From a virus, in the IMG/VR virus record IMGVR_UViG_3300046660_000385, positions 1 to 64,000 of that record: 64,000 nt of DNA. One strand, written 5' to 3'. This document shows, one piece after another, positions 350 through 38,046 of this stretch. The notes under the pieces were generated by a model, which was given only the letters and a program-made list of their open reading frames with translations, ran no database searches and was not told the DNA's origin. Made by a program: the position numbers and the translations under genes. Position 1 is the stretch's first letter, and each line of letters opens with the position of its first letter.

Positions 350-402
350 GGTCGTCCTATCGTTGTGTTGTCAGGCGGGCCAGGACGTGGCCCGGGTGTG
401 TC

Positions 403-1220: not shown

Positions 1221-1239
1221 GGTTCGTGGTCAGGGTTTA

Positions 1240-3256: not shown

Positions 3257-3263
3257 GTGGTCC

Positions 3264-4014: not shown

Positions 4015-4160
4015 GCCTTCCTCCGCGCCAGGTCCTCGGTCAGCGCCTCGATGACCAGCTGGCCCAGGCTGATGCCGCGGATGCGCGCCACGCAGGCCAG
4101 CTTGCAGATCGTCGGCCACGGCAGCGTGACGGTCCAGTCGATGTCGGGTTCGCGGATCAT
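4011..4160 (-). CDS. Small ribbon-helix-helix-like protein
   Basis: MIREPDIDWTVTLPWPTICKLACVARIRGISLGQLVIEAL: strand-helix-GIS-helix pattern; coupled both sides. Confidence 0.5.
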   Translation of the reverse strand: MIREPDIDWTVTLPWPTICKLACVARIRGISLGQLVIEALTEDLARRKA

Positions 4161-4528
4161 GCCAGGGTTCCCAGCTTGGCGATGCCGACGAAGATGTCCG
4201 GCGGGCGCGGGATCTCGATCTCGAGCGGACGCCACAGGTGCAGGCAGTTCGGGTGGTTGGAAATCCATGACGAGCGCGGGACGTGCAGCTGCATCACGCA
4301 ATCCTCCGGGTCCCAGAACAATTCTTTGACGGCGCACATCTCGTCCCAGAGTGGCGGGCGATCCTGGCGCGAGACGGAGACGTGTTCCCAGCCCAGCTGG
4401 TCCGAGCAGATCACGCGCAGGGTCTGGTTGCGCGCGAGCTTGACCATGAACAGGCCGTTGTTGCCGGCCTCCTTGGTGGTGCCGTAGATGCCGCTGGTGA
4501 CGCGAAAACGTTCGGGGACTTTGAGCAT
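4157..4528 (-). CDS. Conserved phage protein (GWEHVSVS...LHLWRP family)
   Basis: GWEHVSVS..PPLWDEMC.VK.LFW...HPNCLHLWRP motif set, common in phage hypothetical proteins. Confidence 0.75.
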   Translation of the reverse strand: MLKVPERFRVTSGIYGTTKEAGNNGLFMVKLARNQTLRVICSDQLGWEHVSVSRQDRPPLWDEMCAVKELFWDPEDCVMQLHVPRSSWISNHPNCLHLWRPLEIEIPRPPDIFVGIAKLGTLA

Positions 4529-4630
4529 TGGGGTGTCGGTAAGAAAGGGAACACACACTATTATTATTGAGCGGTATCAATGGCCGCAAGGGTTTTTATG
4601 TGTCTTGTGTGGCGTGAGAATGTGTGATTT

Positions 4631-5548: not shown

Positions 5549-6350
5549 GGGCCAGCTCCTCCTCCACGTTCTTGCGGGCCAGCCCCAGCTTGTCCATCAG
5601 CTCGCGCATCAGGCGCACCGTCACGCGCGAGACCGTATGGTCCTTGTCGTACTGCATGATGGTCTTGCCGACCAGCTGGGCCTTCTTGACGTCGGTCGAT
5701 TCCGGCAGCGCGGTCTCGAACACGCTCTCGAACGAGGCCTTCACCTCGTTGGCGACGATCCGGCATACCTGCTTGCGGCCGTCGTGCTTGGTGAGCACGG
5801 CGCCGCCAAAGGTCAGTTTCGGGTTGGCGGTCTTGGCCTGGTGGATGAAGTCGAGCACGTCGTCAGCGCCGATCAGCGACAGCTTGGAGCCGGATTCGAC
5901 CGGCACGATCACCATGTCGGCGGCCGCCAGCGCGTTCGCGCTGAGCAGGCCCAGCGACGGCGGGCAGTCGATCAGGATCACGTCGTAGCCGTCGGCAATC
6001 CGCGACAGCTTCTCGGCCAGCAGGCGCGTGGCGATGAACGGGTTGGCGGCCAGCACCTCGCGTTCCAGGTTCGCCAGTTTCAGGGTCGCGCCGAGCAGGT
6101 GCACGCCGGGGATGCGGGTCTCGGTGATGATCGCCTCGGAGATCGTCGACTGGCCGGCCAGCACGCGCTCGATCGGCCGGGACGGCAGCTCCGCGAAGCT
6201 GTAGATCAGCGCGGTCGCGTGGGCCTGGGGATCGAAGTCGACGACCAGCACACTCAGGCCTTCGCGCGCCAGGGCGTCCGCGCCCGAGGTGCAGAGGAAG
6301 GTTTTGTTGACGCCGCCCTTGTGGTTGACGACCGCTACAATTTTCGCCAT
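5538..6350 (-). CDS. parA: ParA/Soj family ATPase
   Basis: NHKGGVNKT deviant Walker A, VDFDPQAHAT, YDVILIDCPPSLG. Confidence 0.95.
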   Translation of the reverse strand: MAKIVAVVNHKGGVNKTFLCTSGADALAREGLSVLVVDFDPQAHATALIYSFAELPSRPIERVLAGQSTISEAIITETRIPGVHLLGATLKLANLEREVLAANPFIATRLLAEKLSRIADGYDVILIDCPPSLGLLSANALAAADMVIVPVESGSKLSLIGADDVLDFIHQAKTANPKLTFGGAVLTKHDGRKQVCRIVANEVKASFESVFETALPESTDVKKAQLVGKTIMQYDKDHTVSRVTVRLMRELMDKLGLARKNVEEELAHAE

Positions 6351-6422
6351 GTCAGTAGTGCCTGGTTATTAGAAAGAGGAAATTATCTCATGCAGGAGCG
6401 ATAATTACCACTAAGACAGGGC

Positions 6423-6455
6423 AAAAAAAAAGCCCCGCTGAATAAGCAGCGGGGC
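6423..6455 (-). terminator. Intrinsic terminator upstream of parA
   Basis: Minus strand GCCCCGCTG-loop-CAGCGGGGC followed by T9. Confidence 0.85.
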
Positions 6456-6496
6456 AGGGTATGTTGGTCTGTCCACGGACCAGCAACGATTCTACC

Positions 6497-7129
6497 TCAT
6501 GCGGCGCTGGCCAGGTACATCGCGGTCAGCGCATCGCGCAGTGCGTCGACGTCGCCGTTGACCAACAGCGGTTCCTGGCCGATGCCGCGCAGGATCTGCA
6601 CGGTCTTGCCGTTGGCGCGGCGGGTCATGACGATCACCTTGTGGTAGGCGCGCAGCGATTCGAGCGCCTTCATCGAGTCGGCCGCGTCCAGCAGCAGCAG
6701 CTTGAACTCCTTGCCGAACTCGTTCTCGATCATGCGGTGGTGGATCTGCGGCAGCGCGATCACGGCCACGCGGCGGCGGAACGCCAGCGGCTCATTGCCG
6801 GCCGGGGCCGGCGCACGCTGCACCGGCGGCACCAGCTGCACCGCCGGCGCGGGCGCCTCGACCGGCGCCGCCAGCGGCGCGGGCGCCGGTGCGGGTGCTT
6901 CCTCCCCGCGCAGGCCGGCCAGCCAGCCCGGATACCCGCCGAGGCGCCACAGATCCCACTTGCCGATCAGGGCGGCCATCGCGCCGTCGGCGTCGGTGAT
7001 CCCCTGCTGGGTCATGAAGTCCTTGATGTCCTTGCGCAGCGCCAGGCCGTAGTCGGCCCACTCGGCTTCTTCCTGGCTACGGTGCACCTGGCCGTCATCG
7101 GACACGTATGCGGTAATCGCCTTTGCCAA
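6497..7129 (-). CDS. Hypothetical two-domain protein with Ala/Pro linker
   Basis: Likely TTG start after GAGGAG; C-terminal alpha/beta domain; ends LASAA. Confidence 0.65.
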   Translation of the reverse strand: MAKAITAYVSDDGQVHRSQEEAEWADYGLALRKDIKDFMTQQGITDADGAMAALIGKWDLWRLGGYPGWLAGLRGEEAPAPAPAPLAAPVEAPAPAVQLVPPVQRAPAPAGNEPLAFRRRVAVIALPQIHHRMIENEFGKEFKLLLLDAADSMKALESLRAYHKVIVMTRRANGKTVQILRGIGQEPLLVNGDVDALRDALTAMYLASAA

Positions 7130-7253
7130 AACGTCTCTCCTCATGCGGGATGGTCGTCGCGCCAGCCCTGCCCGCTCCCGGCCTGGTGCGTTTTCATTGC
7201 GGCGAAAACATACTCGCAGGACCATAGTATTGCAACTTTGGAACTTTGTGGAG

Positions 7254-7276
7254 GGGGTGTGATACTATCACACCCC
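7254..7276. repeat. 23-bp palindrome copy 2, candidate parS
   Basis: Identical to 5251-5273, intergenic. Confidence 0.75.
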
Positions 7277-7285
7277 TTTTTTAGC

Positions 7286-7831
7286 TCAGCGCGGGTAGGC
7301 GCGCAGCACGCGTTCAAGGCCTGGCCGGCACTCCTTGAACTCCGGGCACAAGCCGCCACGGTAGACGCACTCGGGCACCATGTAGTGCGCCAGGTCCGGG
7401 TCGATCTCGGCCACCGCATTGCGCACGCGGCGCCAGGTGGCGACCGTCTTGCCCGACGCGTTGTAGCACAGGCGCTTGCGGCTCATGGTGATGAGGGCCT
7501 GGGCGTTGACCAGCATGCCGTGGTTGACCGGCGTGTTGCGGGTGACGACGTCGTCGCCGGCGCCGCCGCGGTCGTCGCGCATGCTCTGGACAAAATGCTC
7601 GACGCCGTGTTTGTGGCGCACCAGGTGCACCGACACGAAGGTCGGGATGGCGGCCAGCTCGATCCAGAACATCCTGGCCCGGATCGGGCTGTGCTCGGTA
7701 CGATACCAGGCCTTCAGTGGCGCCTTGACCGGCTGGCCGTGCGTGGTCATCTGGGCCGCGCGTTGCACGAGGCCCAGGTCCGTGACCGGCACGATCTTGA
7801 TGACGCGCCGGGCCGGCGCACCCGTCTCCAT
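7286..7831 (-). CDS. thyX: ThyX-like FAD-dependent thymidylate synthase (short phage type)
   Basis: EHSPIR, VSVHLVRHK...QSMR, NAQALITMSRKRLC, C-terminal PECVYRGGLCPE. Confidence 0.7.
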   Translation of the reverse strand: METGAPARRVIKIVPVTDLGLVQRAAQMTTHGQPVKAPLKAWYRTEHSPIRARMFWIELAAIPTFVSVHLVRHKHGVEHFVQSMRDDRGGAGDDVVTRNTPVNHGMLVNAQALITMSRKRLCYNASGKTVATWRRVRNAVAEIDPDLAHYMVPECVYRGGLCPEFKECRPGLERVLRAYPR

Positions 7832-8082
7832 CAGGCCGGCTGCAGCGGCGTGTACAGCAGCGCGCGCAGGTCGTTGATCGACAGGCCGGTGGCGTCGTGC
7901 GACTTGATGAGGAAGGTGGCCGACACCGGCAGGTGGCCGTGGCGCATCTTGCTGATGACCGGCGGCTGCACGTCCATCACGCGGCACAGGGCGGCGTCGT
8001 TCTTGCAGCCCAGGATCTCGAGCAGCTTGTCGAGCAGTGCCTTCGGGTTCTGGGTCTGCGGGTCGGGTTTCTTGCGTGGCAT
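7831..8082 (-). CDS. XRE-like HTH protein
   Basis: NPKALLD...KNDAALCR.MDV.PPVISKMRH..LPV; resembles a family I recall from Oxalobacteraceae. Confidence 0.75.
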   Translation of the reverse strand: MPRKKPDPQTQNPKALLDKLLEILGCKNDAALCRVMDVQPPVISKMRHGHLPVSATFLIKSHDATGLSINDLRALLYTPLQPA

Positions 8083-15407: not shown

Positions 15408-15733
15408 GCGCCGACGACCTGGACGTGCCGAGCGCCGAGGAAATGATCGACCTGCTGAAAGAGGAGGTCGAGATCCTGACCGCCCAGCTCGACGCCCTGC
15501 AGGCCGGCCACCGCGGCGACCTGCTGGCGGCCGAGATCCGCGCCCGCTTCGGCATCAAGCGCCGTCTCGACCAGGAGATCGCGCGCGGCAACGAGCTGGC
15601 GCGCGAGCGCGACAACCATAAACGCCAGCTGCAGCACCACCGCCGGCTGGTCGGCGACCTGATGGCCCTGACCGAGGCGCCCAGCGAGCACGACCTGCTG
15701 GAACGCGTGCGCAGACTGGTGCGGGGCATCTAA
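15404..15733 (+). CDS. Hypothetical coiled-coil protein
   Basis: ATGA-coupled ORF. Confidence 0.65.
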   Translation: MSADDLDVPSAEEMIDLLKEEVEILTAQLDALQAGHRGDLLAAEIRARFGIKRRLDQEIARGNELARERDNHKRQLQHHRRLVGDLMALTEAPSEHDLLERVRRLVRGI

Positions 15734-17226
15734 TGGACGACTACCGCGACCTGCGCGACTACCAGATCGACGCGATCGAAAGCATCCGCGCCGCGATCCG
15801 GGCCGGCCACCGCCGCATCTGCCTGGTGGCCCCGACCGGCTCCGGCAAGACCAAGATCGGCGCGTTCATGGTGCGCCAGACCCTGAAAAAGATGCACCGC
15901 GCCGCGTTTGTCTGCGACCGCATCAACCTGATCGACCAGACCTCGATGGTGTTCGACGCCGAGGGCATCCCGCACGGCGTGGTGCAGGGCAACCACCCGC
16001 GCGTGGCCCCCTGGGAGCGCGTGCAGGTGTGCTCGATCCAGACCGTGGCGCGCCGCGCCTGGCCCTCGGCCATCGTGATCCTGATCGACGAGTGCCACAC
16101 GATCAGCCGCGCCGTGAAGCAGCGCATGCTGGATGACGACGGCTCGACGGTGTTCATCGGCCTGACCGCCACGCCCTTCACGCGCGGCATGGACAAGATG
16201 TACGACGTCCTCATCAACGTGGCCACCACCAACGACCTGATCCGCCGTGGTTTCCTGTCGCCGTTCCGCATTTTCGCGGCGCGCGAGCCGGACATGACCG
16301 GCGTGGCGATCGTCAACGGCGAGTTCGACGTCGGCGAGACCAGCCGCCGCGCCAGCAAGGTCGTGGGCGACTGCGTGGCCGAGTACCTGCGCCTGGGCGA
16401 CGGCCGCAAGTTCATCTGCTCGGCGGTCGACACCGCCCACGTCCAGGAGCTGGAACGCCAGTTCATGGCGGCCGGCATCATGACCCGCGCCTACACCTAC
16501 CGCGAGGACGACGTCGAGCGCGCCGACGTGGTCGAGGAGTTCCGCCGCCCGGACTCGTCGATCCGGGGACTGATTACCGTGACGGCCGCGAGTAAAGGTT
16601 TTGATGTGCCCGACATTGGCGTGGTCATCATGGCGCGCCCGCTGGCGAACTCGCTCGCCGAGTACATCCAGCTGTTCGGCCGGGGCCTGCGGATCTCCGA
16701 CGGCAAGGACCACCTGATCGTGCTGGACCACTCGGGCAACTCCGAGCGCTTCTGGGACGAGTGGACCGCCTTCTTCGCCGAGGGTGCGCTGGGTTTTACG
16801 CGCGGGCGCAAGAACGGCGCCGGCAAGAACCGCGACAAGGCCGAGGCCAAGCCGATGAAGTGCCCGGCCTGCAAGAGCCTGCACCACCCGATGCCGTACT
16901 GCCCGACCTGCGGCCACGTCTACCCGCCGAAGGAGGCCGTGCGCCACGAGCCGGGCAGCCTGGTCGAGCTGCTGGCCGCGCGCGACCCCGCCGAACTGGC
17001 GGCCGACCTGTACCCGCAGCTGGTGCACGAGGCGATCCGCCGCAAGAAAGAGAACCCCGAGGCCTGGGCGAAGAACCGCTACGCCCGCCTGACCAACCAG
17101 CCGGCGCCGAAGATCGCGTTCGCCGACGTCGTGCCGGTCGAGGCCAAGCAGTACGTGCGCAACAAGCTGACCTCGCTCGACATCGCCTACGGCAAGAAGA
17201 TGGGTTTCAGGAAGGAGCGAGCCTGA
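15733..17226 (+). CDS. SF2 DExH helicase with C-terminal Zn ribbon
   Basis: LRDYQ, APTGSGKT, DECH, GLTATP, GFDVPD, Q..GRGLR, CPAC...CPTC. Confidence 0.95.
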   Translation: MDDYRDLRDYQIDAIESIRAAIRAGHRRICLVAPTGSGKTKIGAFMVRQTLKKMHRAAFVCDRINLIDQTSMVFDAEGIPHGVVQGNHPRVAPWERVQVCSIQTVARRAWPSAIVILIDECHTISRAVKQRMLDDDGSTVFIGLTATPFTRGMDKMYDVLINVATTNDLIRRGFLSPFRIFAAREPDMTGVAIVNGEFDVGETSRRASKVVGDCVAEYLRLGDGRKFICSAVDTAHVQELERQFMAAGIMTRAYTYREDDVERADVVEEFRRPDSSIRGLITVTAASKGFDVPDIGVVIMARPLANSLAEYIQLFGRGLRISDGKDHLIVLDHSGNSERFWDEWTAFFAEGALGFTRGRKNGAGKNRDKAEAKPMKCPACKSLHHPMPYCPTCGHVYPPKEAVRHEPGSLVELLAARDPAELAADLYPQLVHEAIRRKKENPEAWAKNRYARLTNQPAPKIAFADVVPVEAKQYVRNKLTSLDIAYGKKMGFRKERA

Positions 17227-28258: not shown

Positions 28259-28578
28259 GCACTATCCATATCCTTTATCTCGGCAACAACAGCATCGTGG
28301 ACGTGACAGGTCTGCGCGACGAAGCAACCGGCGCCTATGTGACCGACGCCAACGTGGTCATGACGCTGCTGACCCAGACCGGGGCAGAGGTGGGCGGCGT
28401 GCAGTGGCCGATCCAGCTGGTGTACGTCCCCGAGACCAGCGGCACCTACCGCGCCACGCTGCCGTACACGCTGGACTTGACCGAGGGCGGGCGCTACGTG
28501 GCCCGGATCATCGCCAACGCCGGGGCCGGACTGCGCGCCGAGTGGGACATGCCCTGCGTCGGCAGGCTGCGCACGTAA
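28255..28578 (+). CDS. Small Ig-like virion protein
   Basis: Beta-rich, GTYRATL...GRY; ends fibre module. Confidence 0.65.
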   Translation: MSTIHILYLGNNSIVDVTGLRDEATGAYVTDANVVMTLLTQTGAEVGGVQWPIQLVYVPETSGTYRATLPYTLDLTEGGRYVARIIANAGAGLRAEWDMPCVGRLRT

Positions 28579-28600
28579 AAAAGCCGCCCGAGGGCGGCTT
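28577..28600 (-). terminator. Terminator at convergence of fibre module and accessory operon
   Basis: AAGCCGCCC-GA-GGGCGGCTT with A6 on plus strand. Confidence 0.75.
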
Positions 28601-28618
28601 CACAGGGGCAGGGCCGGT

Positions 28619-28936
28619 TCAGGCGGGGCCGTTCTGATCGCGCCAGATTTGGACCGCATGCTCGGCTGATTCGGCTTCACCGTTGTCGATCACCATGCTG
28701 TCGCCGGTGCCGCTGCCCTTCTGGTTGACGTAGGCGTAGCCGAAGGTCGGCGAGTACAGCACGTCCAGCCCGTCGATCTGGTGCAGTTCCAGCACGGCCT
28801 CGTCGCCCTGCTCGGCGATCACGGCGGCGGCGTCGTCGCGGCGCTCAATGGCGTGCTGGCGCATGTCGGTGTAGGGGATGGCGTCCTCGACCTGCTGCGT
28901 GCTGGTCGAACCCTTGATGGTCAGAATTGAAGTCAT
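28619..28936 (-). CDS. Acidic hypothetical protein
   Basis: RBS AGGAG; 105 aa. Confidence 0.7.
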   Translation of the reverse strand: MTSILTIKGSTSTQQVEDAIPYTDMRQHAIERRDDAAAVIAEQGDEAVLELHQIDGLDVLYSPTFGYAYVNQKGSGTGDSMVIDNGEAESAEHAVQIWRDQNGPA

Positions 28937-28948
28937 GTTGATCTCCTG

Positions 28949-29164
28949 TTAGCGTGGTGAATAGCCCTGCTTGGCCAGGGCACCCTGCACGGCCTCGATC
29001 CCGCGAATCATGCGGTAGGCCAGGGCGGTGCGCTGGTCGTGCGGCAGGTGCGCTTCGGTCTTGTCGAAGAAGTCATGGAACGTCGAGCGCTTGCAGAACT
29101 GCGCCAGCTCCCACGCACAGTCATCGTCCATTGTGGCGGTGATGGTGACGGGATCGTGGCTCAT
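28949..29164 (-). CDS. Small conserved mobile-element protein
   Basis: AWELAQFCKR...AYRM..GIE.VQ.ALA..GYSPR. Confidence 0.7.
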   Translation of the reverse strand: MSHDPVTITATMDDDCAWELAQFCKRSTFHDFFDKTEAHLPHDQRTALAYRMIRGIEAVQGALAKQGYSPR

Positions 29165-29511
29165 GACGGCTCCTTCTGGACGGTGTAGACGTCGCACCAG
29201 AGCAGCATGCTTTTCGCGTAGGCCCACGGCCAGCGCAGATACCGCTCCACCGCGATCCGCTCCTTGTGATCCTTCATCGCCGCCCGGTAGGCTTCGACGT
29301 CGTTCTGAAACCATGCGTATTCGCCTTCGAGGTCGAAGCAGGGGTCCCTCTCCCAGCTTGCGATCATCTTGCGGTCCTCCTCCGGGATGCCGGCGGGAAG
29401 GGTGGGGTAGGCCGGGCCGTTGTACTCCGGTTCTTCGGGCTTGAACCAGTCGGGAATCGCCGTCGGCGCATGGGCGGCGAAGTAGTCGAGCCGCGTGATC
29501 GAGTCGTTCAT
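29161..29511 (-). CDS. Hypothetical phage protein
   Basis: RLDYFAAHAP...W.WAYA..ML motif; RBS AAGGAG. Confidence 0.75.
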   Translation of the reverse strand: MNDSITRLDYFAAHAPTAIPDWFKPEEPEYNGPAYPTLPAGIPEEDRKMIASWERDPCFDLEGEYAWFQNDVEAYRAAMKDHKERIAVERYLRWPWAYAKSMLLWCDVYTVQKEPS

Positions 29512-29523
29512 GGCTTGCTCCTT

Positions 29524-29982
29524 TCAGTTGAGGGTGCTGCGCAGGATGGGCTGGCGAGACACCAGCGCCGGGTCGAAACCGTTATCCCAGGGATAGCGGC
29601 TGTTCTCGTCGGTCCAGACCAGCTGGACCGCCGTGTAAGCGGGGTAGCGGTGCTTTGCGGCGAACAGGTACTGGTCGGCGGCGACACGCGGGACCGGCAC
29701 CAGGCGCGCCGGGTAGCCCTGAGCCACGTCGAGCAGATCCACGTCGAGCGGGGGTACGCCCTCGGTCGTGAAGCGGCGGCCCAGCTCGTTCAGGAACTGG
29801 GCCGCAACCTGCGGCGGCAGGCCGAACACGATCACCTCGGGCAGGCCTTTCGCGGCCAGCCCGACGGTGTAGGAAAACGAGGGTGAGGTCGGGCTGCCGA
29901 ACACGCCCTGCACGGCCCAGCCATGCTTGGCGATCATGTCGTCCATGCCGGCCTCGTAGATCTTGAAGTCCTTCTTCTTCAT
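29524..29982 (-). CDS. DUF4262-like protein
   Basis: HGWAVQGV...FSYTVGL...LPEVIVFGL...QLVW.D...YPWD. Confidence 0.82.
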   Translation of the reverse strand: MKKKDFKIYEAGMDDMIAKHGWAVQGVFGSPTSPSFSYTVGLAAKGLPEVIVFGLPPQVAAQFLNELGRRFTTEGVPPLDVDLLDVAQGYPARLVPVPRVAADQYLFAAKHRYPAYTAVQLVWTDENSRYPWDNGFDPALVSRQPILRSTLN

Positions 29983-30167
29983 GATTCCTCCTTGCGGGTT
30001 GGGGTTGTTTCCTGCTCGGCTTTGTACGCCTTGTACAGCGGCGAGCGGTAGATGGTGGACAGTGCGATGCCGACGGCCCTGGCGGCGGCGTAGGCCGTCA
30101 CCTTGCCTCCGCTCTCGCGCATCAAGGCCACGGCCTTGACGACTTCTGCGGACGGACGCCCGCTCAT
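29979..30167 (-). CDS. Small HTH protein, candidate operon autorepressor
   Basis: TAYAAARAVGIALSTIYR helix-turn-helix. Confidence 0.7.
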   Translation of the reverse strand: MSGRPSAEVVKAVALMRESGGKVTAYAAARAVGIALSTIYRSPLYKAYKAEQETTPTRKEES

Positions 30168-30505
30168 GGCTTCATCCCCACGTCGCGCGGGTCGGTCAGG
30201 TCGTACTTGTTCGCCCACATGTCGACGAACTCCTCGGGCGTGCCGCTCATGGCGTAGGTGTCGAACAGCTCCTCCAGCATGGCGCGGTCATCCCAGCACC
30301 AGCGCGCCTTGGCGTAGGCCAGGATCGCAGTCAGCGTCTTGGGGCGCTGCGCGGCGCAGGCAGGGCAGCGGTACATGGTCAGGCCCGGCGTGCACTGCAC
30401 GAGGGTCATGCTGGCCTCGGGCAGCGCGGCCATGCAGTCCATGCACGCCTTGTCGGGGCCGCAGGCGAACGGGCTGATGTTGCTGCCCTTGTAGCGGTCG
30501 GTCAT
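30164..30505 (-). CDS. Hypothetical Zn-binding protein
   Basis: CMDC...CPAC plus acidic C-terminus. Confidence 0.65.
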   Translation of the reverse strand: MTDRYKGSNISPFACGPDKACMDCMAALPEASMTLVQCTPGLTMYRCPACAAQRPKTLTAILAYAKARWCWDDRAMLEELFDTYAMSGTPEEFVDMWANKYDLTDPRDVGMKP

Positions 30506-30519
30506 GGTTGAGACTCCTT

Positions 30520-30834
30520 TCATTTGTGCAGCAGCCCGTTGCGGTCGCCTGGATCAATCGGCGAGACGGGCTGGTAGTGGAAAATCCTGGCCCACGGAAT
30601 GTCGGCCAGCGCCCCGCGCACCATCGGGTAGACGTCGAGGGTGCATGCGGCCAGCAGCAGGACCACAGCGGCCAGCAGCAGCGGCCATGTGCCTTGCTCG
30701 GCCCGCACCACGGTGGCGGTGGGCCGGTCGCGCAGCCACTGGCGCTCGGCAGCGGTCATCACCCACGGATCGCGGGTGACGAACCGCTCGTCAGGTTTCG
30801 TCACGATGTGACGAACTTCGTCAGAGCGGTTCAT
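30520..30834 (-). CDS. Hypothetical membrane protein
   Basis: Hydrophobic WPLLLAAVVLLLAAC segment. Confidence 0.55.
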   Translation of the reverse strand: MNRSDEVRHIVTKPDERFVTRDPWVMTAAERQWLRDRPTATVVRAEQGTWPLLLAAVVLLLAACTLDVYPMVRGALADIPWARIFHYQPVSPIDPGDRNGLLHK

Positions 30835-30837
30835 GGG

Positions 30838-31260
30838 TCAGGTCTCGTCGTCGGTGGCTTGCGTTGCCATGAGAAGGTCGGCGGCGGCGTCCAGGCTGGC
30901 ACGCAGGCGGCGGCTCAGGTTGCGGTCGTCCTTCACACGGAAGAACGACTCCACCGAGTCGATCAGGATGGTCATCGCGTGCGCGCGGTCGGGCAGATCG
31001 CCTTCGTCAATGATGTTCCCGCCCAGCCATTTGCCGAACTCGCTGGACACCTCGTACTCGAACACGCCGGGATAGTCGAGGCGCAGCCGGTCGGCAGCGG
31101 CACGCAGTGTCGTGATGGCCGGGACCCAGTACATGACGTCGTCGACCACTTCGAGCAGGCCACCGTCGCCGATGTAGTGGGACATGACCTCTTTCAGGTC
31201 GGCCTGGTGCAGCCCATCCATCACGAACGCCGCCGTGATTGCGGTTTGGTGCAGGTTCAT
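30838..31260 (-). CDS. Acidic hypothetical protein (cassette gene)
   Basis: ATG 31260 after AAGGAG, directly downstream of repeat R5. Confidence 0.75.
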   Translation of the reverse strand: MNLHQTAITAAFVMDGLHQADLKEVMSHYIGDGGLLEVVDDVMYWVPAITTLRAAADRLRLDYPGVFEYEVSSEFGKWLGGNIIDEGDLPDRAHAMTILIDSVESFFRVKDDRNLSRRLRASLDAAADLLMATQATDDET

Positions 31261-31272
31261 TGCTCTCTCCTT

Positions 31273-31333
31273 GGTTGCCGGGACAATTCCCGCACCAGCC
31301 TCCGCAGTGCAGAGGCTGGCACTGGCGCTGTCA
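31273..31333 (-). repeat. Intergenic stem-loop element R5
   Basis: TGA-cagcg-CCAGT-GCCAGCCTCTGC/GCGGAGGCTGGT-GCGGGAATTGTCCCGGCAACC-RBS. Confidence 0.88.
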
Positions 31334-31579
31334 GTCGGCGCGGGTTTCCTCGAAGTAGGTGGTCGCCGCATCGGCGATCTTGGCGTCGAAGCTGACCCCG
31401 TTGCGGTCGCACCAGTGCATCAGGTCGCACAGCAGGTCGTGCAGGATCGTCTCCGGTTCCTCGTTGGCGGCGACCATGCCGGTAGCGGTGGCGAACGCGC
31501 TGAGCGCAGTGCCTGCGTAACCGGCGCGGTCGTCGTTCTTGCCCTCCGGGTCGGGCGGCAGGTTGTCGAGGTGGCTCAT
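31331..31579 (-). CDS. Small acidic helical protein (cassette gene)
   Basis: NDDRA..A..AL..F...DLLCDLMHWCD. Confidence 0.72.
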   Translation of the reverse strand: MSHLDNLPPDPEGKNDDRAGYAGTALSAFATATGMVAANEEPETILHDLLCDLMHWCDRNGVSFDAKIADAATTYFEETRAD

Positions 31580-31581
31580 GG

Positions 31582-32049
31582 TCAGGCTCCTTTGGTGGTG
31601 GTGGGGGAAGGGCTGTCGGCAGGCGCGGCCACGCTCCAGCCACGCGCGCGCATGATGTTGCCAACGATACGCAGGGTGTAGTGCGGGACGTCGCGGTCGT
31701 CGACCCCGATCACGGCGTTGCACTCCGGGCAGCAGCCAGCCGGGACCAACTCGCCCGGTTCCAGGTATTCGCTGATGCGCTGGATGTGGTGGATACCGTT
31801 GATGGTGTCCAGCGTGCCGGTCCAGTCGCACTCGTCGCAGGCGTAGACGGTGGGCGTGCGCGGCTCCTGCTTCGGCGCGGTGATCGGCAGCGGCGCGGTC
31901 ATGCGCTCGATGTAGCTCGTGACTACCATGTACAGGTTGTTGTAGTCCGTGCCGGTCGGGGCGCTCTCGGGCTGGTTGATCTCCTCGTCGTCGTACTGCT
32001 TTACCAAGCGCAGCAGCTCGGCCAGCGGGTCTTGCGGTGTCGTTGTCAT
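31582..32049 (-). CDS. Zn-ribbon protein (cassette gene)
   Basis: CDECDWTG...PGELVPAGCCPEC. Confidence 0.72.
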   Translation of the reverse strand: MTTTPQDPLAELLRLVKQYDDEEINQPESAPTGTDYNNLYMVVTSYIERMTAPLPITAPKQEPRTPTVYACDECDWTGTLDTINGIHHIQRISEYLEPGELVPAGCCPECNAVIGVDDRDVPHYTLRIVGNIMRARGWSVAAPADSPSPTTTKGA

Positions 32050-32060
32050 GGCATCCTCCT

Positions 32061-32121
32061 GTAGTCGGGACCATTCCCGCCTGAGCGCCCCCTTGCGGAG
32101 ACGCTGAGACTGGCATGGTCA
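32061..32121 (-). repeat. Intergenic stem-loop element R4
   Basis: TGA-ccatg-CCAGT-CTCAGCGTCTCC-GCAA-GGGGGCGCTCAG-GCGGGAATGGTCCCGACTAC-RBS. Confidence 0.88.
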
Positions 32122-32565
32122 GGGTTGCGGCACCGGCAGCACGACCACTTCGGCCCAGTAGCCGGTGGCGCGCGCCTTGGCCTCCTCCTTCATGGCCAGA
32201 TCCGGCCTGCCGCACCATGTCAGCGCCCCCAGGGTGTCGAACACGCCCTTGGCGCGGCGCTCCTCGACCCTGGCCCTGGCCTGCTCGCCCTGTTCATCCG
32301 CGAACTGCTCGCGGGTGAGGCTGGCGGCGTGCTCGTAAAGCGCCAGGGTTTCGGGCGTGATGTCCTTGTAGACGCGGGTTTGCGGGTTGGCCTCGCGCAC
32401 GAAGAACGGGTGATCGTCCCAGGCCCGCTCGCGCGCCATAAGGATCTGCGATTTCAGTTCGGCCTCGTAGTCGCGGCGCACCAGCACGAGGTGGGTGTAG
32501 ATACGTTCGGTCCTGCGGGTGTACTCGACCCCGTTGTGGACCACGCGGTAGGTTTTCATCGGCAT
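32119..32565 (-). CDS. Hypothetical protein (cassette gene)
   Basis: MPMKTY...TRRTERIYTH...WCGRPDLA. Confidence 0.72.
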   Translation of the reverse strand: MPMKTYRVVHNGVEYTRRTERIYTHLVLVRRDYEAELKSQILMARERAWDDHPFFVREANPQTRVYKDITPETLALYEHAASLTREQFADEQGEQARARVEERRAKGVFDTLGALTWCGRPDLAMKEEAKARATGYWAEVVVLPVPQP

Positions 32566-32581
32566 GCTCGGCTCTCCTGCA

Positions 32582-32640
32582 GGTAATCGGGGACGGCCCC
32601 CGCCTGAGCGCCCTGCGTACAAGGCGCTCAGACTGGTTCA
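32582..32640 (-). repeat. Intergenic stem-loop element R3
   Basis: TGA-a-CCAGT-CTGAGCGCCTTG-TACG-CAGGGCGCTCAG-GCGGGGGCCGTCCCCGATTACC-RBS. Confidence 0.88.
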
Positions 32641-33048
32641 GTCGTCGGCACGGTCCTTGTCGTGATCGAGCTGCTCCATGATCTCGTCGGCCTCGTCCGT
32701 GACCACCTGTGCCATGTCCTCGAACGCCTGGACGGCAGCTTCCGGCGATTCGGGTTCGATCAAGTCAAGGGTCCTAGTGGGTGCGGCGCAACTGTCGGGG
32801 ATGCTCATCGTGAGCATGATCGCCCGGACGTTGCCGGTCTCGACGCCCTTCAGCTCATCGCTGTGACGCCACGTTCCGTCGTGCAGCAGGACGGAGACAG
32901 CCGCGCCGCAGCCGTACTTGTCCACGGCGCGCCCGAACTCGGCCACGGTCTCGCACCCGGTGTGGGCAAGGATTGACTTCAAGTTCTCGTAAATCGCGGT
33001 GCCGGTAGCGGCGTCCTCCTCCATCTTGAAATACTCTTTCTCGTTCAT
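32638..33048 (-). CDS. Acidic hypothetical protein (cassette gene)
   Basis: ATG 33048 after AGGAG; D/E-rich. Confidence 0.72.
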   Translation of the reverse strand: MNEKEYFKMEEDAATGTAIYENLKSILAHTGCETVAEFGRAVDKYGCGAAVSVLLHDGTWRHSDELKGVETGNVRAIMLTMSIPDSCAAPTRTLDLIEPESPEAAVQAFEDMAQVVTDEADEIMEQLDHDKDRADD

Positions 33049-33063
33049 GCCGTGCTCCTGTGT

Positions 33064-33122
33064 GGTTGCCGGGAATAGCCCCGCGTCAGCACCCGGTATG
33101 CCCAGGCGCTGACACTGGTTCA
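33064..33122 (-). repeat. Intergenic stem-loop element R2
   Basis: TGA-a-CCAGT-GTCAGCGCCTGG-GCATA-CCGGGTGCTGAC-GCGGGGCTATTCCCGGCAACC-RBS. Confidence 0.88.
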
Positions 33123-34100
33123 GTCGCGGTCCTGTTCGATCTGGTGCTCGACCCATTGCCAGTAGCCCAGGAGCGTGTTGTCCTCGGCCACATCGTGCCG
33201 CCAGTCACGGCGCAGGTACTGCGGATGCTCGCCGTTGTCGCGCTTGGTGGCGTACTTCTGGAACAACTGGTCGGCGGTCAGTTGGTGGTCGGCAATCGCC
33301 AGCTCGGGCGGGTAGGAGTCGGGCAGATCGGCCCTGGACAGGTCGGCCGCGATCTCGAACACGTTGGTGTCGCGCTCGATCACGAAGCCCACGCCGTTGT
33401 GCTCGACCATGCCCTGCTCGCGCATGTACTCGTAGACGCGGGTGGCCAGCTCGTACGATCCCTCATGGCCCAGCCAGCCCTCGACGGCGCGGATCACTTC
33501 CTCGCGCGTGGTGTAGACCGGCTCGTCCGGGTCGATCTCGTACTGGTCCTCGTCGATCAGTTCCTCCAAGTTCAGCACGACAGAGACCTCCGACGGCTCG
33601 AAGGCCAGGGTGATGCAGTTCTCGACGTCGTAGTCGATGGCGGTGATGGTGCCGATGGCGTTCTCGCCGGTATGGCGCTCGCCGTGGTCGGTGTCGGACG
33701 TTTCGCCGTTGATCGACAGCACGCGGGTGCCGACTTGGATGCGCCCGCGGATCTCCTCGTACTTCGGGTGCTCGTTGATGAAGGAGCGGGTGCCCAGCTT
33801 CGCCAGCTTGTCGTAGATGCCGCTGATGAAGTCCACGCAGTCGCCGCCGTTGACAGGCGTATCGTCGTCGCCGAACCCAAGCTGGGTCAGGCCCAGGATG
33901 ACCGCGTCGATGGTGTCGCGGGCGGCGCGAAGCCCCGTGTCATCCTCCGCGATCAGGTGATTGTGGGAGACGGTGACGGTGGCCGGGATCATGCCCGACT
34001 CGGCGGCGTCTCCCGCGCGCAGGACGATCTCGTCGCGCGCTGCAGCCGCCTTTCCGAAGGTCGGCGCGGTGATGAAGGTGGTGAAGCGGTATTCAGTCAT
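33120..34100 (-). CDS. Highly acidic multidomain hypothetical protein (cassette gene)
   Basis: 326 aa, D/E-rich; C-terminal GEHP.Y.R.DW...V....T.LGYW.WV motif. Confidence 0.8.
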   Translation of the reverse strand: MTEYRFTTFITAPTFGKAAAARDEIVLRAGDAAESGMIPATVTVSHNHLIAEDDTGLRAARDTIDAVILGLTQLGFGDDDTPVNGGDCVDFISGIYDKLAKLGTRSFINEHPKYEEIRGRIQVGTRVLSINGETSDTDHGERHTGENAIGTITAIDYDVENCITLAFEPSEVSVVLNLEELIDEDQYEIDPDEPVYTTREEVIRAVEGWLGHEGSYELATRVYEYMREQGMVEHNGVGFVIERDTNVFEIAADLSRADLPDSYPPELAIADHQLTADQLFQKYATKRDNGEHPQYLRRDWRHDVAEDNTLLGYWQWVEHQIEQDRD

Positions 34101-34117
34101 GATCTGCTCCTTTCAGT

Positions 34118-34178
34118 GGTGGCCGGGACGATCCCCGCGTCAGCGCCCCGGACAGAGGCGCTGACACTGGTGCCGTCA
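34118..34178 (-). repeat. Intergenic stem-loop element R1
   Basis: TGA-cggca-CCAGT-GTCAGCGCCTC-TGTCC-GGGGCGCTGAC-GCGGGGATCGTCCCGGCCACC-RBS. Confidence 0.88.
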
Positions 34179-34379
34179 GGCCGGGTTGCCCTTGAGCTTC
34201 ACATGGGCCAGCAGGTAGCCGGTGGGCGAGCCTTCAAGGATCGCCAGGGTGCCAAAGCGCGTCGTGACGCTGCGCTCGAAGATGCCCTCGGTGCGGAACT
34301 TGCCGGTATCGACGACAACCGCCTTGCCGCAGAAGGGGTGGCGGTACTGGTCAGGATAGGTTTCGCGGTGCGATTTCAT
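34176..34379 (-). CDS. Small hypothetical protein
   Basis: RBS GAGGAG; 67 aa. Confidence 0.65.
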   Translation of the reverse strand: MKSHRETYPDQYRHPFCGKAVVVDTGKFRTEGIFERSVTTRFGTLAILEGSPTGYLLAHVKLKGNPA

Positions 34380-34396
34380 GGTGGATCTCCTCTCAG

Positions 34397-34891
34397 TCAG
34401 ATAAGACCGTGTTCGGCCATCGAATACGACGCGGAAGCGGTGGCGATGATGTGGTCCAGCACGCGGACGTCGATCAGCGCCAGGGTCTGTGACAGCGTGC
34501 GGGTCAGCAGCTTGTCGGCCTCGCTCGGCTCGATGTGCCCCGACGGGTGGTTATGCGCCAGCAGGACCGCAGCCGCGTTGTAGTGCAGCGTGGCCTTGAC
34601 CACCTCACGCGGGTGGATGCTGGTCTGCGTCAGGGTGCCCCGGAACATTTCCTCCCGCGCGATCAGGCGGTGCTGCGGGTCGAGGAACAGCACCAGAAAG
34701 ACCTCATGCTCCAGCTCCCCCACGTAGAGGCGCACATAGTTGCGCGCCGTGGCCGGGCTGGTCATCAGCTCGCCGGGTGCGCGCATGCGGTTCGACAGGA
34801 TCGACAGGGCGCGGCGGATGGTCGCATCCTCGCGCTGCCGGCGTGTATCAACGCGCGGCTCTGGTTTCAGCTGCACTACCTGGGCGTTCAT
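34397..34891 (-). CDS. radC: RadC-like JAB/MPN domain protein
   Basis: EHEVF.VLFLD...EMFRGTL.QTS.HPREVVK...[13 protein letters not shown]...VLDHII. Confidence 0.95.
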
Positions 34892-34946
34892 AAGTTGGCT
34901 CCGTTCAAGTGGAAGGGGAAACGAGGGCGCACAGACCCACATGGAT

Positions 34947-34975
34947 AGTATATAGCATGATGCTATATATGTGCA
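34947..34975 (-). promoter_or_regulatory. Promoter of radC operon with overlapping palindromic operator
   Basis: TGCACA-17-TATACT on minus strand; TATATAGCAT-G-ATGCTATATA at 34949-34969. Confidence 0.7.
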
Positions 34976-35013
34976 CACAATAGGCGCTCCCTCGCGCACA
35001 AAGGACAGCTCGA

Positions 35014-35559
35014 ATGACCACTCAATATGATTTCGCCGCTGCGGAGGTCGACTACGCGGCAGGCGGGTACAGCATCAACGCCCTGGCCACGAAGCACAGC
35101 ATCCCCGAACCCACCTTGCGGCGCTACGCCAAGAAGCAGGGCTGGATCAAAGGGACCAGTGATGTTAAGCGGGAACTTGTACGGGAAGCAATGGCTGGCG
35201 TACCTGTTGACGAACAGGTGACGAACGGAATGACGAGCGACGAACAGATTCGTCAAGTGCAGATCGACGAGGCCACCCAGGACGTGCGGGACATGACGAC
35301 CGGCTTGGCCGTGGCACGCAAGGCGATGGACAAGCTGCTGACGATGGTGGACAGCGTCGATCAGCCCAAAGATGTCAAAACGATTGTCGAGGCGAACAAA
35401 CTGGCCGTCGAGACGATCCGCAAGATCCGCGAGCTGGACGACCCGGAGGACAGCAGCACCAACGTGACCGTGGCGGTGTCGGATGGATTCGACGAGCTGC
35501 GTGCCGCGTTCAAGAAGCGCCTGCAACAGGCCGTAGGGACCAATGCTGACCCTGCCTGA
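35014..35559 (+). CDS. terS: Terminase small subunit
   Basis: N-terminal HTH (DYAAG..SINALA.KH.I...[10 protein letters not shown]); overlaps terL start. Confidence 0.75.
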
Positions 35560-37159
35560 CGAGATCCGCGCCGCCCTGCACGCGGCCCCGTTCGACACGG
35601 TGGCCGACCTGTGGGAGGTGATCGAGAGCCAGTACGGCATGGACGGCAAGGCGTGGCTGGGCAGGAACGACCGCTTCTATTTGCTGACGCGCCTGCTGCA
35701 CCGGCTCGACGCCATCCACCCCTGGATCTACGCACGCTGCCGCGAGGTCGAAACTGAACCGGACGGTGTTCTTGATCTTTGGGCAAGGGAACATTATAAG
35801 AGTACGGTTATTACATTTGCGGGCATTATTCAGGAAATTATTGTCAATCCAGAGATCACGATAGGCATTTTTTCCCACACTAAGCCGGTGGCGAGAAAGT
35901 TCCTATTGCAGATCAAGCAGGAGCTTGAGGCCAACCGGGAATTGCAGGCCACCTACCCCGACGTGCTGTACCCCGACCCACGCGGCCAGTCGCCAAAGTG
36001 GAGCGAAGAAAAAGGCATCGTGGTGAAAAGGCGCTCGAATCCCAAGGAAGCGACTGTCGAAAGCCACGGTCTTGTCGATGGGCAACCCACCGGCGCACAC
36101 TTTTTACTGCGCGTGTATGACGACGTGGTGACGAGGGAGTCCGTCAGCACCCCGGATCAGGTCAACAAAACGACCACGGCCTGGGAACTCTCGGACAACC
36201 TGGGCGCCAGGGGCGAGGACGGCAAGATCCGCGCGTGGCACGTCGGGACGCGCTACTCGTTCATGGACACCTATCAGGAGATCATCGACAGGCGCATCCT
36301 CAAGGTGCGGCTGTACCCGGCCACCGCTGACGGCACGCCCGACGGCAAGCCGGTGTTCCTGACCCAGGAAGCGTGGGAAGCGAAGAAACTGGCCCAGGGG
36401 CCGGCGACGATCGCGTGCCAACAACTGATGAATCCTGCCGCAGGGAATGAAAGCATGTTCAAGAAGGAGTGGCTATCCTTCCTCGACATTCGACCCGCCA
36501 CCTTGAACGTGTACATCATGGTGGACCCGGCCAATTCCAAAAAGAAGGGGTCGGACAACACCGCAATGGCCGTGGTCGGCGTCGATAGCGGCAACAACCG
36601 CTATTTATTGGACGGCTACAGACACAAAATGGGCCTGCGCGAGCGTTGGGAAGCGTTGAAGGGCCTGCGCCGGTACTGGATGTCCCAGCCTGGGGTCCAG
36701 GCCGTGCACGTCGGCTATGAGCGGTACGGTCTCCAGTCGGATCTCGAATACTTCGAGGAGCAGATGACCCGTGAGAAGGAGGCGTTCGAGATCGTCGAGC
36801 TGGCCTGGACTTCCGACGGAGCGCAATCGAAAGACGACCGCGTCCAGAGGTTGCAGCCCGACTTCATCAGCCGCCGTTTCTATTTGGCCGCCGTGGTCCA
36901 GGGCGAGACCGCGAACCAAAAGAGAATCCGCGAGCAGGGACAACCCTTCCGAATCTTCAAGCCTGTGACCAGGCGCGACCACGAAGGGAACATGTACAGT
37001 CTCAACAAAGGCTTTTTGGAAGAATATCTGACCTATCCTTTCAGTGCGAAGAAGGATCTGATCGACGCGACCTCCCGCCTGTACGACATGTCGCCGGTCC
37101 CGCCGATCATCATCGACGAGCGTGCGCTCGAACCCGAAACCTTCGCGGACGGGGTGTGA
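35543..37159 (+). CDS. terL: Terminase large subunit
   Basis: AREHYKST Walker A variant, G.HF...YDDVV, VGTRY, nuclease VDPA...SD.TA, D..DA. Confidence 0.9.
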   Translation: MLTLPDEIRAALHAAPFDTVADLWEVIESQYGMDGKAWLGRNDRFYLLTRLLHRLDAIHPWIYARCREVETEPDGVLDLWAREHYKSTVITFAGIIQEIIVNPEITIGIFSHTKPVARKFLLQIKQELEANRELQATYPDVLYPDPRGQSPKWSEEKGIVVKRRSNPKEATVESHGLVDGQPTGAHFLLRVYDDVVTRESVSTPDQVNKTTTAWELSDNLGARGEDGKIRAWHVGTRYSFMDTYQEIIDRRILKVRLYPATADGTPDGKPVFLTQEAWEAKKLAQGPATIACQQLMNPAAGNESMFKKEWLSFLDIRPATLNVYIMVDPANSKKKGSDNTAMAVVGVDSGNNRYLLDGYRHKMGLRERWEALKGLRRYWMSQPGVQAVHVGYERYGLQSDLEYFEEQMTREKEAFEIVELAWTSDGAQSKDDRVQRLQPDFISRRFYLAAVVQGETANQKRIREQGQPFRIFKPVTRRDHEGNMYSLNKGFLEEYLTYPFSAKKDLIDATSRLYDMSPVPPIIIDERALEPETFADGV

Positions 37160-37352: not shown

Positions 37353-37453
37353 TGTGTTACGGGGCGCAGGCCTGACCTCGACCAGTAACAATAGGATGGT
37401 GTCCCGCCTAGCTTGACACTATGCGTCTGTGGTCTACACTCTAGTGGTACACA
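37353..37453. promoter_or_regulatory. Candidate res site and resolvase promoter
   Basis: Three TGT...ACA-bounded subsites (TGTTAC..GTAACA; TGTCC..TGACA; TGTGG..TACACA) and TTGACA-16-TACACT. Confidence 0.55.
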
Positions 37454-37473
37454 ACCACCACGGAGGGCAGGCC

Positions 37474-38046
37474 ATGAGCAAGGGACCAGGGAAGCGGATC
37501 GGGTATGTGCGGGTATCGACGACCGACCAGAACACGGAGAGGCAGCTTGACGGGATCGAGCTGGACAAGACGTTCGAGGACAAGTGCAGCGGCAGCACGA
37601 CCAACAGGCCGGCATTGAAGGCGATGCTCGACTACGTGAGGGACGGCGACACGCTCTACGTCCACTCGCTGGACCGCCTGGGCCGCAACCTGCACGACCT
37701 GCTGCTGATGGTGGCCCGCCTGACCGATGACGGCGTGACGGTCATCTTCGTCAAGCAGAACCTGACCTTCTCGGGCGAACCCAACCCGATGAACGACCTG
37801 ATGCTCGGCCTGCTCGGTGCCGTGGCGCAGTTCGAGAGGGCCATGATCCGCGAGCGCCAGGCCGAAGGGATCGCCATCGCCAAGAGGAAGGGCGTGTACA
37901 AGGGCAGGAAGCCCACGCTCGACGACGCCACGGTGCAGGAGCTGCGCCTGCGCGCTGCCGACCCCGCGATCTCCAAGGCCGCGCTGGCCAGGGAGTACGG
38001 CATCAGCCGCATGACCATGTACCGCTACCTCGACGGCCACGCCTAA
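37474..38046 (+). CDS. Small serine recombinase (resolvase/invertase family)
   Basis: GYVRVSTTDQ..ERQ, SG...RP.L, SLDRLGR, AQFER..IRERQ.EGI..AK..G.Y.GRK, C-terminal HTH. Confidence 0.96.
   Translation: MSKGPGKRIGYVRVSTTDQNTERQLDGIELDKTFEDKCSGSTTNRPALKAMLDYVRDGDTLYVHSLDRLGRNLHDLLLMVARLTDDGVTVIFVKQNLTFSGEPNPMNDLMLGLLGAVAQFERAMIRERQAEGIAIAKRKGVYKGRKPTLDDATVQELRLRAADPAISKAALAREYGISRMTMYRYLDGHA

Follow-up and report, generated by a model that had tools for sequence, protein, structure and literature searches.

Five related elements of about 64 nt, here called R1–R5, lie between small genes on the minus (coding) strand of a viral DNA stretch of 64,000 nt (the window), which forms the first 64 kb of the virus record IMGVR_UViG_3300046660_000385, a single contig of 117,858 bp with 67% G+C that is rated complete. 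Each element forms a single long hairpin, interrupted and about two helical turns in length, and as it is structured, strand-specific and covarying on the sense strand, it most likely acts as an RNA. Our tentative reading is that the elements punctuate an mRNA, as signals for processing and stability that are built like the early RNase III signals of phage T7. The sequence family appears to be undescribed, going by Rfam and literature searches alone, and the kind of element to which it belongs, the intercistronic phage hairpin, is already known. The five copies are listed here with their covariance-model scores and, for four of them, the minimum free energy (MFE) of the fold.

31274–31337, minus strand: R1, between the genes for 82 and 140 amino acids (aa); 73.8 bits, MFE −35.5 kcal/mol
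32061–32125, minus strand: R2, between the 148-aa and 155-aa genes; 72.4 bits, one C–C mismatch in the upper stem
32584–32648, minus strand: R3, between the 136-aa and 148-aa genes; 64.4 bits, MFE −37.9 kcal/mol
33065–33130, minus strand: R4, between the 326-aa and 136-aa genes; 64.3 bits, MFE −37.8 kcal/mol, z −3.63
34119–34182, minus strand: R5, between the 67-aa and 326-aa genes; 76.4 bits, MFE −45.4 kcal/mol, z −3.91

An earlier reading of the letters alone (the sequence-only reading) had placed five copies in these gaps on the coding strand, and this is borne out. The pattern CCAGT-N24-36-GCGGG-N3-7-TCCC, of which the GCGGG opens the 3′ flank of the copies, has 5 matches in the window against 0.17 expected, a number reached by none of 100 shuffles. 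In the whole 117,858-bp genome, only R1–R5 are found, both by regular expression and by covariance model; the model gives 5 sense matches of 64–76 bits, and its other 5 rows are antisense echoes of 19–26 bits.

Fold, covariation and strand

Copies outside the source genome were reached through exact sequence patterns. An exact-pattern search of IMG/VR gathered 24 loci, 2 of them chance matches; 39 distinct copies were aligned with MAFFT, ignoring structure, and a covariance model was built from 39 distinct sequences. In alignment columns, the hairpin consists of the following parts, from its base to its loop.

Columns 6–10 with 58–62: lower stem GACNN/NNGTC, 5 bp, holding the upstream stop codon
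Columns 11–12 and 56–57: 2x2 loop, purine-rich on its 3′ side
Columns 13–14 with 54–55: the CC/GG pairs of the CCAGU/GCGGG box
Column 15 versus 53: the invariant A opposite G mismatch of this box
Columns 16–17 with 51–52: the G–C pair and conserved U–G pair of this box
Columns 18–29 with 39–50: covarying upper stem, 11–13 bp, with a loop variable in length and sequence

Pairing in this structure-blind alignment reaches 94.9% of cells, compared with 84.4% in shuffles and 35–45% in slid controls. Eleven of the 21 pairs change on both sides, and the covariation value of 0.340 (0.160 in shuffles) was reached by 0 of 500 shuffles. When the set is extended to 74 distinct copies, 93.4% of cells are paired (77.0% in shuffles), covariation rises to 0.409 (versus 0.144) and double-sided changes are seen in 13 of 21 pairs (210 cells); this larger alignment is model-fitted and leans toward structure, and many of its rows are positional orthologues, which means that its cells cannot be counted as independent events. 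Covariation extends to the lower stem, as in pair 9–81 of the 74-copy alignment (AU 45, UA 9, CG 4, UG 3, GC 2, GU 1). The claim of a covarying structured element thus stands, and so does that of a fixed A–G mismatch: every one of the 39 copies has A15 and G53.

Most of the finer details given from the letters are also seen. The stems GTCAGC/GCTGAC, CTGAGC/GCTCAG and GCCAGC/GCTGGT are as described, except that the CTCAGC/GCTCAG stem of R2 has one C–C mismatch. GCAA and UACG loops are present, and the base of the hairpin pairs across the stop codon as GACAG/TTGTC, GACCAT/ATGGTC and GACGG/TCGTC in the MFE folds of R1, R2 and R5. The three upstream genes said to end in GAC-TGA are those before R1, R3 and R4. 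As a minor observation, the upper-stem pair of columns 20 and 48 is unpaired in 9 of the 39 copies, with C–C in R2 and in the GTCAGC...GCTCAC types; this shared irregularity may be tolerated, or may be a trace of hybrid arms.

A second, short hairpin of the form GGG..CCC beside the ribosome-binding site had been proposed to compete with the long one, but it appears in none of the five MFE folds. The corresponding columns (CGGGN-N4-NCCCG, 52–56 with 61–65) are pairable in 94% of cells, with 0 pairs changed on both sides, and the small hairpin is predicted to be less stable than the long one in 69 of 74 distinct members (median 4.8 kcal/mol). The switch built on this competition is therefore only partly sustained: pairing is widely possible, but it lacks double-sided covariation and is usually the weaker fold.

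The fold also has a strand. In all five window copies the coding strand folds better than its complement, by 4.6–10.4 kcal/mol, and among 818 cells there are 117 G–U wobbles versus 4 A–C. Since G–U pairs are in such excess over A–C pairs and the sense strand folds better, the fold belongs to the sense strand, as the sequence-only reading had it, where it most likely acts as RNA or, less likely, as single-stranded DNA (ssDNA).

The position of the element between genes is equally regular. In the window and 22 related loci, the covariance model finds 51 sense copies at or above 51.6 bits, and it finds nothing in the two chance loci. The upstream stop codon falls within model positions 1–11 in 51 of these 51 copies (the TGA at 5–7 in R5, the stop of GAC-TGA at 9–11 in R4), and the start codon follows 11–26 nt past the model end in 50 of 51 (18 nt in R5); for the copy at L004:4993, the scan for a Shine–Dalgarno sequence (SD) plus ATG/GTG placed no start. 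The element thereby spans the gap from the stop codon of the upstream gene to 8–25 nt before the ribosome-binding site of the downstream gene. Between positional orthologues, the median pairwise identity of the element is 0.72–0.78 (45 and 36 pairs), compared with 0.58–0.66 over the opening 300 nt of the gene downstream and 0.37–0.38 over the 200 nt upstream. The element is better conserved than its flanks, which points to selection.

Several other assignments were considered and set aside. A promoter or an intrinsic terminator is not supported, as a consensus scan of 28500–35700 found no sigma-70-like hexamers and no U-tract at any R copy, and a sigma-54 promoter fits R1 only. Kink-turn or loop-E motifs, a mimic of CRISPR repeats and an RNase E consensus in AAUUG all rely on letters that are not conserved in R3–R5. 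A stimulator of readthrough or frameshifting was rejected since the spacing from stop codon to stem varies, and binding sites for TerS were rejected in view of the strand-specific fold and of the different terS families in different lineages. Rfam 15 gives 0 matches at gathering score in the 64 kb; at E≤1, positions 31200–34250 give only a chance in-gene match to a snoRNA.

Gene context and spread of the family

The element-bearing genes form one minus-strand operon, which runs from a RadC-like gene (34397–34891) down to about 28619 and is divergent from terS. Its genes and their neighbours are listed here in the order of transcription away from the terS gap, followed by the packaging genes on the other strand.

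34947–34975, minus strand: candidate promoter upstream of the RadC-like gene, the sole sigma-70-like match on the operon strand (TGCACA-17-TATACT, 9/12 consensus)
34397–34891, minus strand: RadC-like JAB domain protein, first gene of the operon, 164 aa from an ATG with SD (PF04002, E 2.2e-42; phrog_10276)
34176–34379, minus strand: 67-aa gene, upstream neighbour of R5; open reading frame (ORF) with SD, without family, homologues in L014 and L017
33120–34100, minus strand: 326-aa gene between R5 and R4; ORF with SD, C-terminus matching phrog_11556 (unknown function)
32638–33048, minus strand: 136-aa gene between R4 and R3; no family in Pfam, NCBIfam or PHROGs
32119–32565, minus strand: 148-aa gene between R3 and R2; weak match to phrog_32956, homologues in L008, L011, L012, L014 and L019
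31582–32049, minus strand: 155-aa gene after R2; CxxC...CxxC, zinc-ribbon-like
31331–31579, minus strand: 82-aa gene, upstream neighbour of R1 (phrog_3963, E 5.8e-13, unknown function)
30838–31260, minus strand: 140-aa gene after R1
28619–30834, minus strand: remainder of the operon without R copies, comprising 104-aa, 113-aa, DUF4262 (29524–29982; PF14081, E 4.5e-33), 116-aa and 105-aa genes
35014–37159, plus strand: divergent packaging genes, small terminase terS (35014–35559; phrog_1206, E 1.3e-15) and large terminase (35543–37159; phrog_38, E 1.9e-45)

The units between repeats are indeed whole genes, but one unit holds two of them, the 155-aa and 82-aa genes, which are coupled with stop and start 2 nt apart. 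Close relatives conserve the gene order, which reads RadC, 326-aa family, a variable slot, 155-aa family, optional genes, 140-aa family ... DUF4262. An R copy stands directly before the homologue of the 155-aa family in all 12 loci with a visible upstream side, and before that of the 140-aa family in 12 of 12 loci, which ties the element to the downstream gene. Of the 23 related IMG/VR loci searched, 13 contain a homologue of the 326-aa gene, which has no Pfam or NCBIfam family, whereas the 136-aa gene has zero tblastn matches in loci L001–L024 and is unique to the source genome among the loci compared.

Gene content between copies differs among close relatives, which nevertheless keep the pairing and, largely, the order of genes. 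Whether content changes exactly at the boundaries of repeats, a question raised in the sequence-only reading, is best seen by comparison with the relative L011. Of the six insertions or deletions that separate it from the window, two carry a repeat, one abuts a repeat and three lie at plain gene junctions; the extra window units are [67-aa gene + R5] and [R4 + 136-aa gene], and one junction lies inside a repeat. Some changes thus carry or abut repeats and many lie elsewhere, and with gene order largely conserved, the proposed recombination joints are supported for a part of the changes only. The 65-nt sequence of R2 is identical in L011, L014 and L019, and the core of R3 is identical to the copies in L011 and L019, where the flanking genes share only about 60% protein identity.

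Altogether, the family comprises 74 distinct sequences from about 70 viral or metagenome records and at least two unrelated phage backbones; with its strong covariation, it merits an Rfam entry. Five relatives that were searched whole have 3–4 copies each, confined to one 2–3.6-kb cluster. Two looser pattern scans of IMG/VR added 50 sense matches in 43 of 73 new loci, and further IMG/VR loci added 9 matches in 7 of 26. The newly added carrier contigs have 47–66% G+C, and the range over all carriers is 42–67%. Many of the carriers come from a lineage whose portal is of the P22 type and whose small terminase is of the Sf6 type, and the usual setting is an operon divergent from terS. In other lineages this divergent layout is seen in 28 of 50 loci, with the element 450–1700 nt from terS; it is also present in L355 and L328 and not in L334 or L287. 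At L287:3634-3694 and L347:2247-2306, the element precedes a long gene with matches to a RusA-like resolvase and a processivity factor rather than a small accessory gene, so the element is not always in a terS-side operon.

The genes that flank the element are very diverse. In the wider family (about 100 copies) they fall into 30 downstream and 43 upstream BLASTP clusters, and no protein family is common to all carriers. When all ORFs of the source genome were compared by tblastn with 44 other-lineage loci, only an SF2 helicase matched, in 17 loci. The source genome has two paralogous genes of this type (ResIII, Helicase_C) near opposite ends of the record (window 15733–17226; record 113625–115109), and these two paralogues, with overlapping opposite-strand frames, account for all matches in the 17 loci.

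Searches beyond viral records gave little. A metagenome contig scan yielded one credible copy among the 120 matches listed, at L173:5-67 (minus strand, 52.7 bits) on a 1.4-kb contig of 42% G+C; it follows a 79-aa gene, its stem is richer in A/U, its lower stem covaries (AGUA/UACU), and the protein content of the contig is unrelated to that of the source phage. A loose pattern on bacterial genome contigs gave no credible copy among the 120 matches listed (best 23 bits). A blastn search of single elements against GenBank phages and PLSDB plasmids, which is a weak test with queries of 62–77 nt, returned only short partial in-gene matches with E≥0.4. A literature search, with supplementary files outside it, found no phage paper with the motif letters, and a search on conserved stem-loops and mosaicism gave nothing relevant among the matches listed.

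One further set of matches was set aside as possibly coincidental. The 15-mer GCGGGAATTGTCCCG occurs in 18 AT-rich viral contigs of 35–39% G+C (L351, L353, L356, L357, L359, L360, L362, L363, L365–L375), where it is the centre of a different, longer hairpin with an 11-bp stem just upstream of a gene start. By a rough estimate, 2–3 chance families are expected; the match may be of this kind, or the small hairpin may be a unit of its own.

Possible roles and known parallels

If the elements are punctuation signals, R1–R5 would be cis-acting RNA elements of one polycistronic message, whose probable start is the one promoter-like site ahead of the RadC-like gene. The sense transcript would fold each element into its long interrupted hairpin, and a nuclease or an RNA-binding factor would recognise the invariant base, made up of the CCAGU/GCGGG box, the A–G mismatch, the U–G wobble and the purine-rich 2x2 loop. 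By cutting or holding the RNA at the hairpin base, this factor would leave the upstream cistron with a protective 3′ hairpin and provide the downstream cistron with a defined 5′ end of its own, so that the unrelated small genes would be expressed and decay independently. The first candidate for the enzyme would be the host RNase III; none was found in the phage genome. The structure of the element is demonstrated, as are its strand, position, conservation and distribution; we infer that it works as RNA rather than ssDNA, that it is cut or bound, and by which enzyme.

In T7, the RNase III sites are named R0.3, R0.5, R1, R1.1 and R1.3. Our folds of the T7 intergenic regions 0.4/0.5, 0.7/1 and 1.2/1.3 have the stop codon in or beside the lower stem; an internal loop separates this stem from an upper one, whose base is conserved (AAGGUC/GGCCUU) while its top varies. 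The R elements share this plan, with a compensating variable top and about two helical turns, and like the T7 sites they form an array of hairpins that fills the gaps between small genes, which in T7 are early genes transcribed by the host polymerase. Also as in T7, there is an interrupted sense hairpin of at least about 20 bp between cistrons, on a transcript that is presumed. According to PMC3867540, the T7 early precursor of about 7000 nt has five RNase III processing signals, and loops or mismatches confine cutting to one strand, leaving 3′ stability hairpins. The shared plan and these five cut signals are what lead us to favour a processing or stability signal. The likeness is one of architecture, without sequence relation: on T7 nt 400–8000 with filters off, the best score of the covariance model is 7.5 bits (E 1.5). 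The copies are also confined to one operon, and cleavage in R is predicted by analogy.

A number of points weigh against this reading. The stretch was not found in sequencing runs on record as RNA. The pairs by the internal loop are invariantly C–G, C–G, (A–G) and G–C, and the conserved box is G–C rich at what may be the place of antideterminants for the E. coli RNase III: G–C at positions 2 and 4 of the proximal box blocks binding or cleavage (PMC3867540), although the numbering of this box depends on the cut site and on the host enzyme. With invariant G–C pairs in the box, an RNase III of the E. coli type might bind without cutting, or not act at all. One would expect a signal read by a general host nuclease to occur in more than one operon, yet in the source genome and in all 5 relatives searched whole the copies sit in a single 2–3.6-kb cluster. 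The sequence of the base is kept across 42–67% G+C and unrelated backbones, which is easier to explain by a dedicated, sequence-specific partner, or by the element itself spreading, than by a loosely specific RNase III. Finally, ssDNA of the same strand would give an equal G–T asymmetry.

The element could instead control initiation at the next gene, as a translational operator or coupling device, either through a dedicated protein on the invariant box or through a terminating ribosome that opens the base and lets the 3′ strand refold into the small hairpin by the ribosome-binding site. We consider this unlikely, but several observations favour it: all 51 copies have the stop codon within the 5′ arm of the base and the SD close behind, the small hairpin is so widely pairable, the 155-aa and 140-aa homologues are always directly preceded by a copy, and the asymmetric invariant box with its A–G mismatch and conserved U–G resembles a protein site. 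However, the SD is unpaired in either fold, the small hairpin shows no double-sided pair changes and is usually the less stable of the two, and the carriers have no common protein family, with only the SF2 helicase shared between the source genome and 17 of the 44 other-lineage loci. Somewhat less likely again is that the elements mainly serve, or persist, as homology patches for the exchange, gain and loss of cassettes, as proposed for the PeSLs of T4-type phages (PMC2839356 and PMC4122927). This would account for the same element between unrelated genes in unrelated backbones, for R2 and R3 copies that are identical across genomes with diverged flanking proteins, for the two window-only units with repeats and the junction inside one of them, and for the often unrelated sequence upstream of a repeat. 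Homology patches, though, require no covarying stem, strand-specific fold or invariant mismatch, gene order in close relatives is largely fixed, and half of the six differences from L011 lie at repeat-free junctions.

The PeSLs deserve comparison in their own right. In PMC2839356 and PMC4122927, they are composite intergenic motifs that span the gap between the upstream stop codon and the downstream SD, among small non-essential genes, with stems that include G–T pairs, all of which is reminiscent of the R elements; they are also linked to insertions, deletions and replacements between related phages, as some of the R copies are in the comparison with L011. A PeSL is defined, however, by a strong sigma-70-like promoter and a terminating stem-loop (PMC2839356), and as the R copies have neither promoter-like hexamers nor a U-tract, they are not PeSLs by definition. 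The invariant asymmetric box and covarying stem of R are, in turn, absent from these PeSL descriptions. The SAS and ESAS elements of Cluster K mycobacteriophages offer another parallel: as PMC3203893 describes them, these are imperfect inverted repeats whose spacer varies and which lie immediately before the starts of some non-structural genes, they have one orientation and are kept with the same gene families across relatives, and their function is unknown. They differ from R in that the arms of ESAS are sequence-conserved 17-mers rather than covarying stems and that 11–19 copies are spread over half a genome instead of one operon (PMC3203893). A search of the window for the 13-nt SAS gave 0 matches at ≤2 mismatches.

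We regard it as very unlikely that the sense strand is folded as DNA, as a site for a recombinase, an HUH enzyme or a primase, with an attC-like or ssi-like function. An integron attC site folds into an imperfect hairpin that has an unpaired spacer and a fixed irregularity, and whose base is conserved while its top varies; it is strand-specific and follows each small promoterless gene of an array in one orientation. The R elements parallel this plan: their base is paired, the spacer in the middle is not, a second box carries a fixed mismatch and the top varies, and there is one array per genome, of small promoterless genes in a single orientation; G–T pairing is possible in DNA, and a serine invertase/resolvase gene lies 3.3 kb away. 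Yet the complete genome has no tyrosine recombinase (PF00589) at E≤0.1, in a search whose control was positive in 14 of 14 genomes, and without an IntI-type recombinase the R array is not an integron. The R fold is on the coding strand, its conserved letters differ from those of attC, of which the alignment shows no core motifs, and a fold locked onto the stop codon and SD is unneeded for an ssDNA site. Gene order is also mostly kept in close relatives, though content varies and flanking genes are very diverse across the wider family. By membership, then, the element is neither attC, PeSL nor T7 site, as the sequence-only reading had held. The serine invertase/resolvase (37429–38046) was set aside, as serine recombinases act on duplex sites.

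There is likewise only a very small chance that the element is a selfish palindrome, a REP/MITE-like mobile hairpin that spreads into intergenic gaps with no role for the phage. Its presence in several unrelated phage lineages and G+C contexts and its local multiplication inside one operon would suit such an origin, but its single orientation in register with stop codon and SD, its stable position before the same gene families and its conservation above that of neighbouring coding sequence would not; a transposase partner was not found, and the bacterial matches listed held no credible copy. A bolder proposal, which we rate as distinctly unlikely, is that a dedicated, portable system uses the element as its cis-site. 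Here, a factor, either phage-borne or a specific host enzyme, would read the CCAGU/GCGGG box, and units of an element plus a neighbouring gene would move between unrelated phages. They would form a terS-side platform for the capture and expression of accessory or counter-defence genes, integron-like without IntI, or an operon-punctuation system with its own nuclease. If true, this would give phages a novel means of acquiring and exchanging genes.

Should the elements be processing or insulating signals instead, they would explain how unrelated small phage genes are expressed independently from one promoter, and synthetic operons would gain a small, transferable part that keeps cistrons separate and that nature has already tried across 42–67% G+C. 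They would also allow searches to pick out, in uncultured phages, an island of variable accessory genes next to terS, where counter-defence genes are likely to be worth seeking.

The source phage

The source phage, an uncultured phage from soil, encodes an SU10-type portal and tail-fibre-like genes. No close phage was found in GenBank, where the best portal identity is 41.5% over half of the portal length, and the 3.6-kb element region has no blastn match among GenBank phages. No usable function came out of Pfam, NCBIfam, PHROGs or the ESM Atlas for the cassette proteins searched in each. Families were assigned to RadC and DUF4262 only, and a Lar-like ESM Atlas lead for the 155-aa protein scores 0.83, which is under the usable threshold; the anti-defence role put forward in the sequence-only reading is hypothetical. 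A T7-type RNA polymerase (PF00940) gave no match, but the control genomes were silent too, so this result is little informative. We infer that the operon is probably the last to be packaged and the first to enter the cell.

Outside the window, a single ORF at record positions 68360–90049 encodes a 7229-aa protein of the polyvalent virion type, with InPase, DUF6884, LPD1 and methyltransferase-like domains, a Strawberry-notch helicase (AAA_34, Helicase_C_4) and LPD39; no polymerase domain was found in it. The serine invertase/resolvase gene mentioned above (PF00239, 130.7 bits; phrog_125) directly follows the large terminase gene. An AT-rich stretch at 34935–34980, within the 120 bp that separate terS from the RadC-like gene, contains a near-perfect palindrome, TATATAGCAT/ATGCTATATA, with promoter-like hexamers in both directions, which makes it a candidate operator for the two divergent operons.

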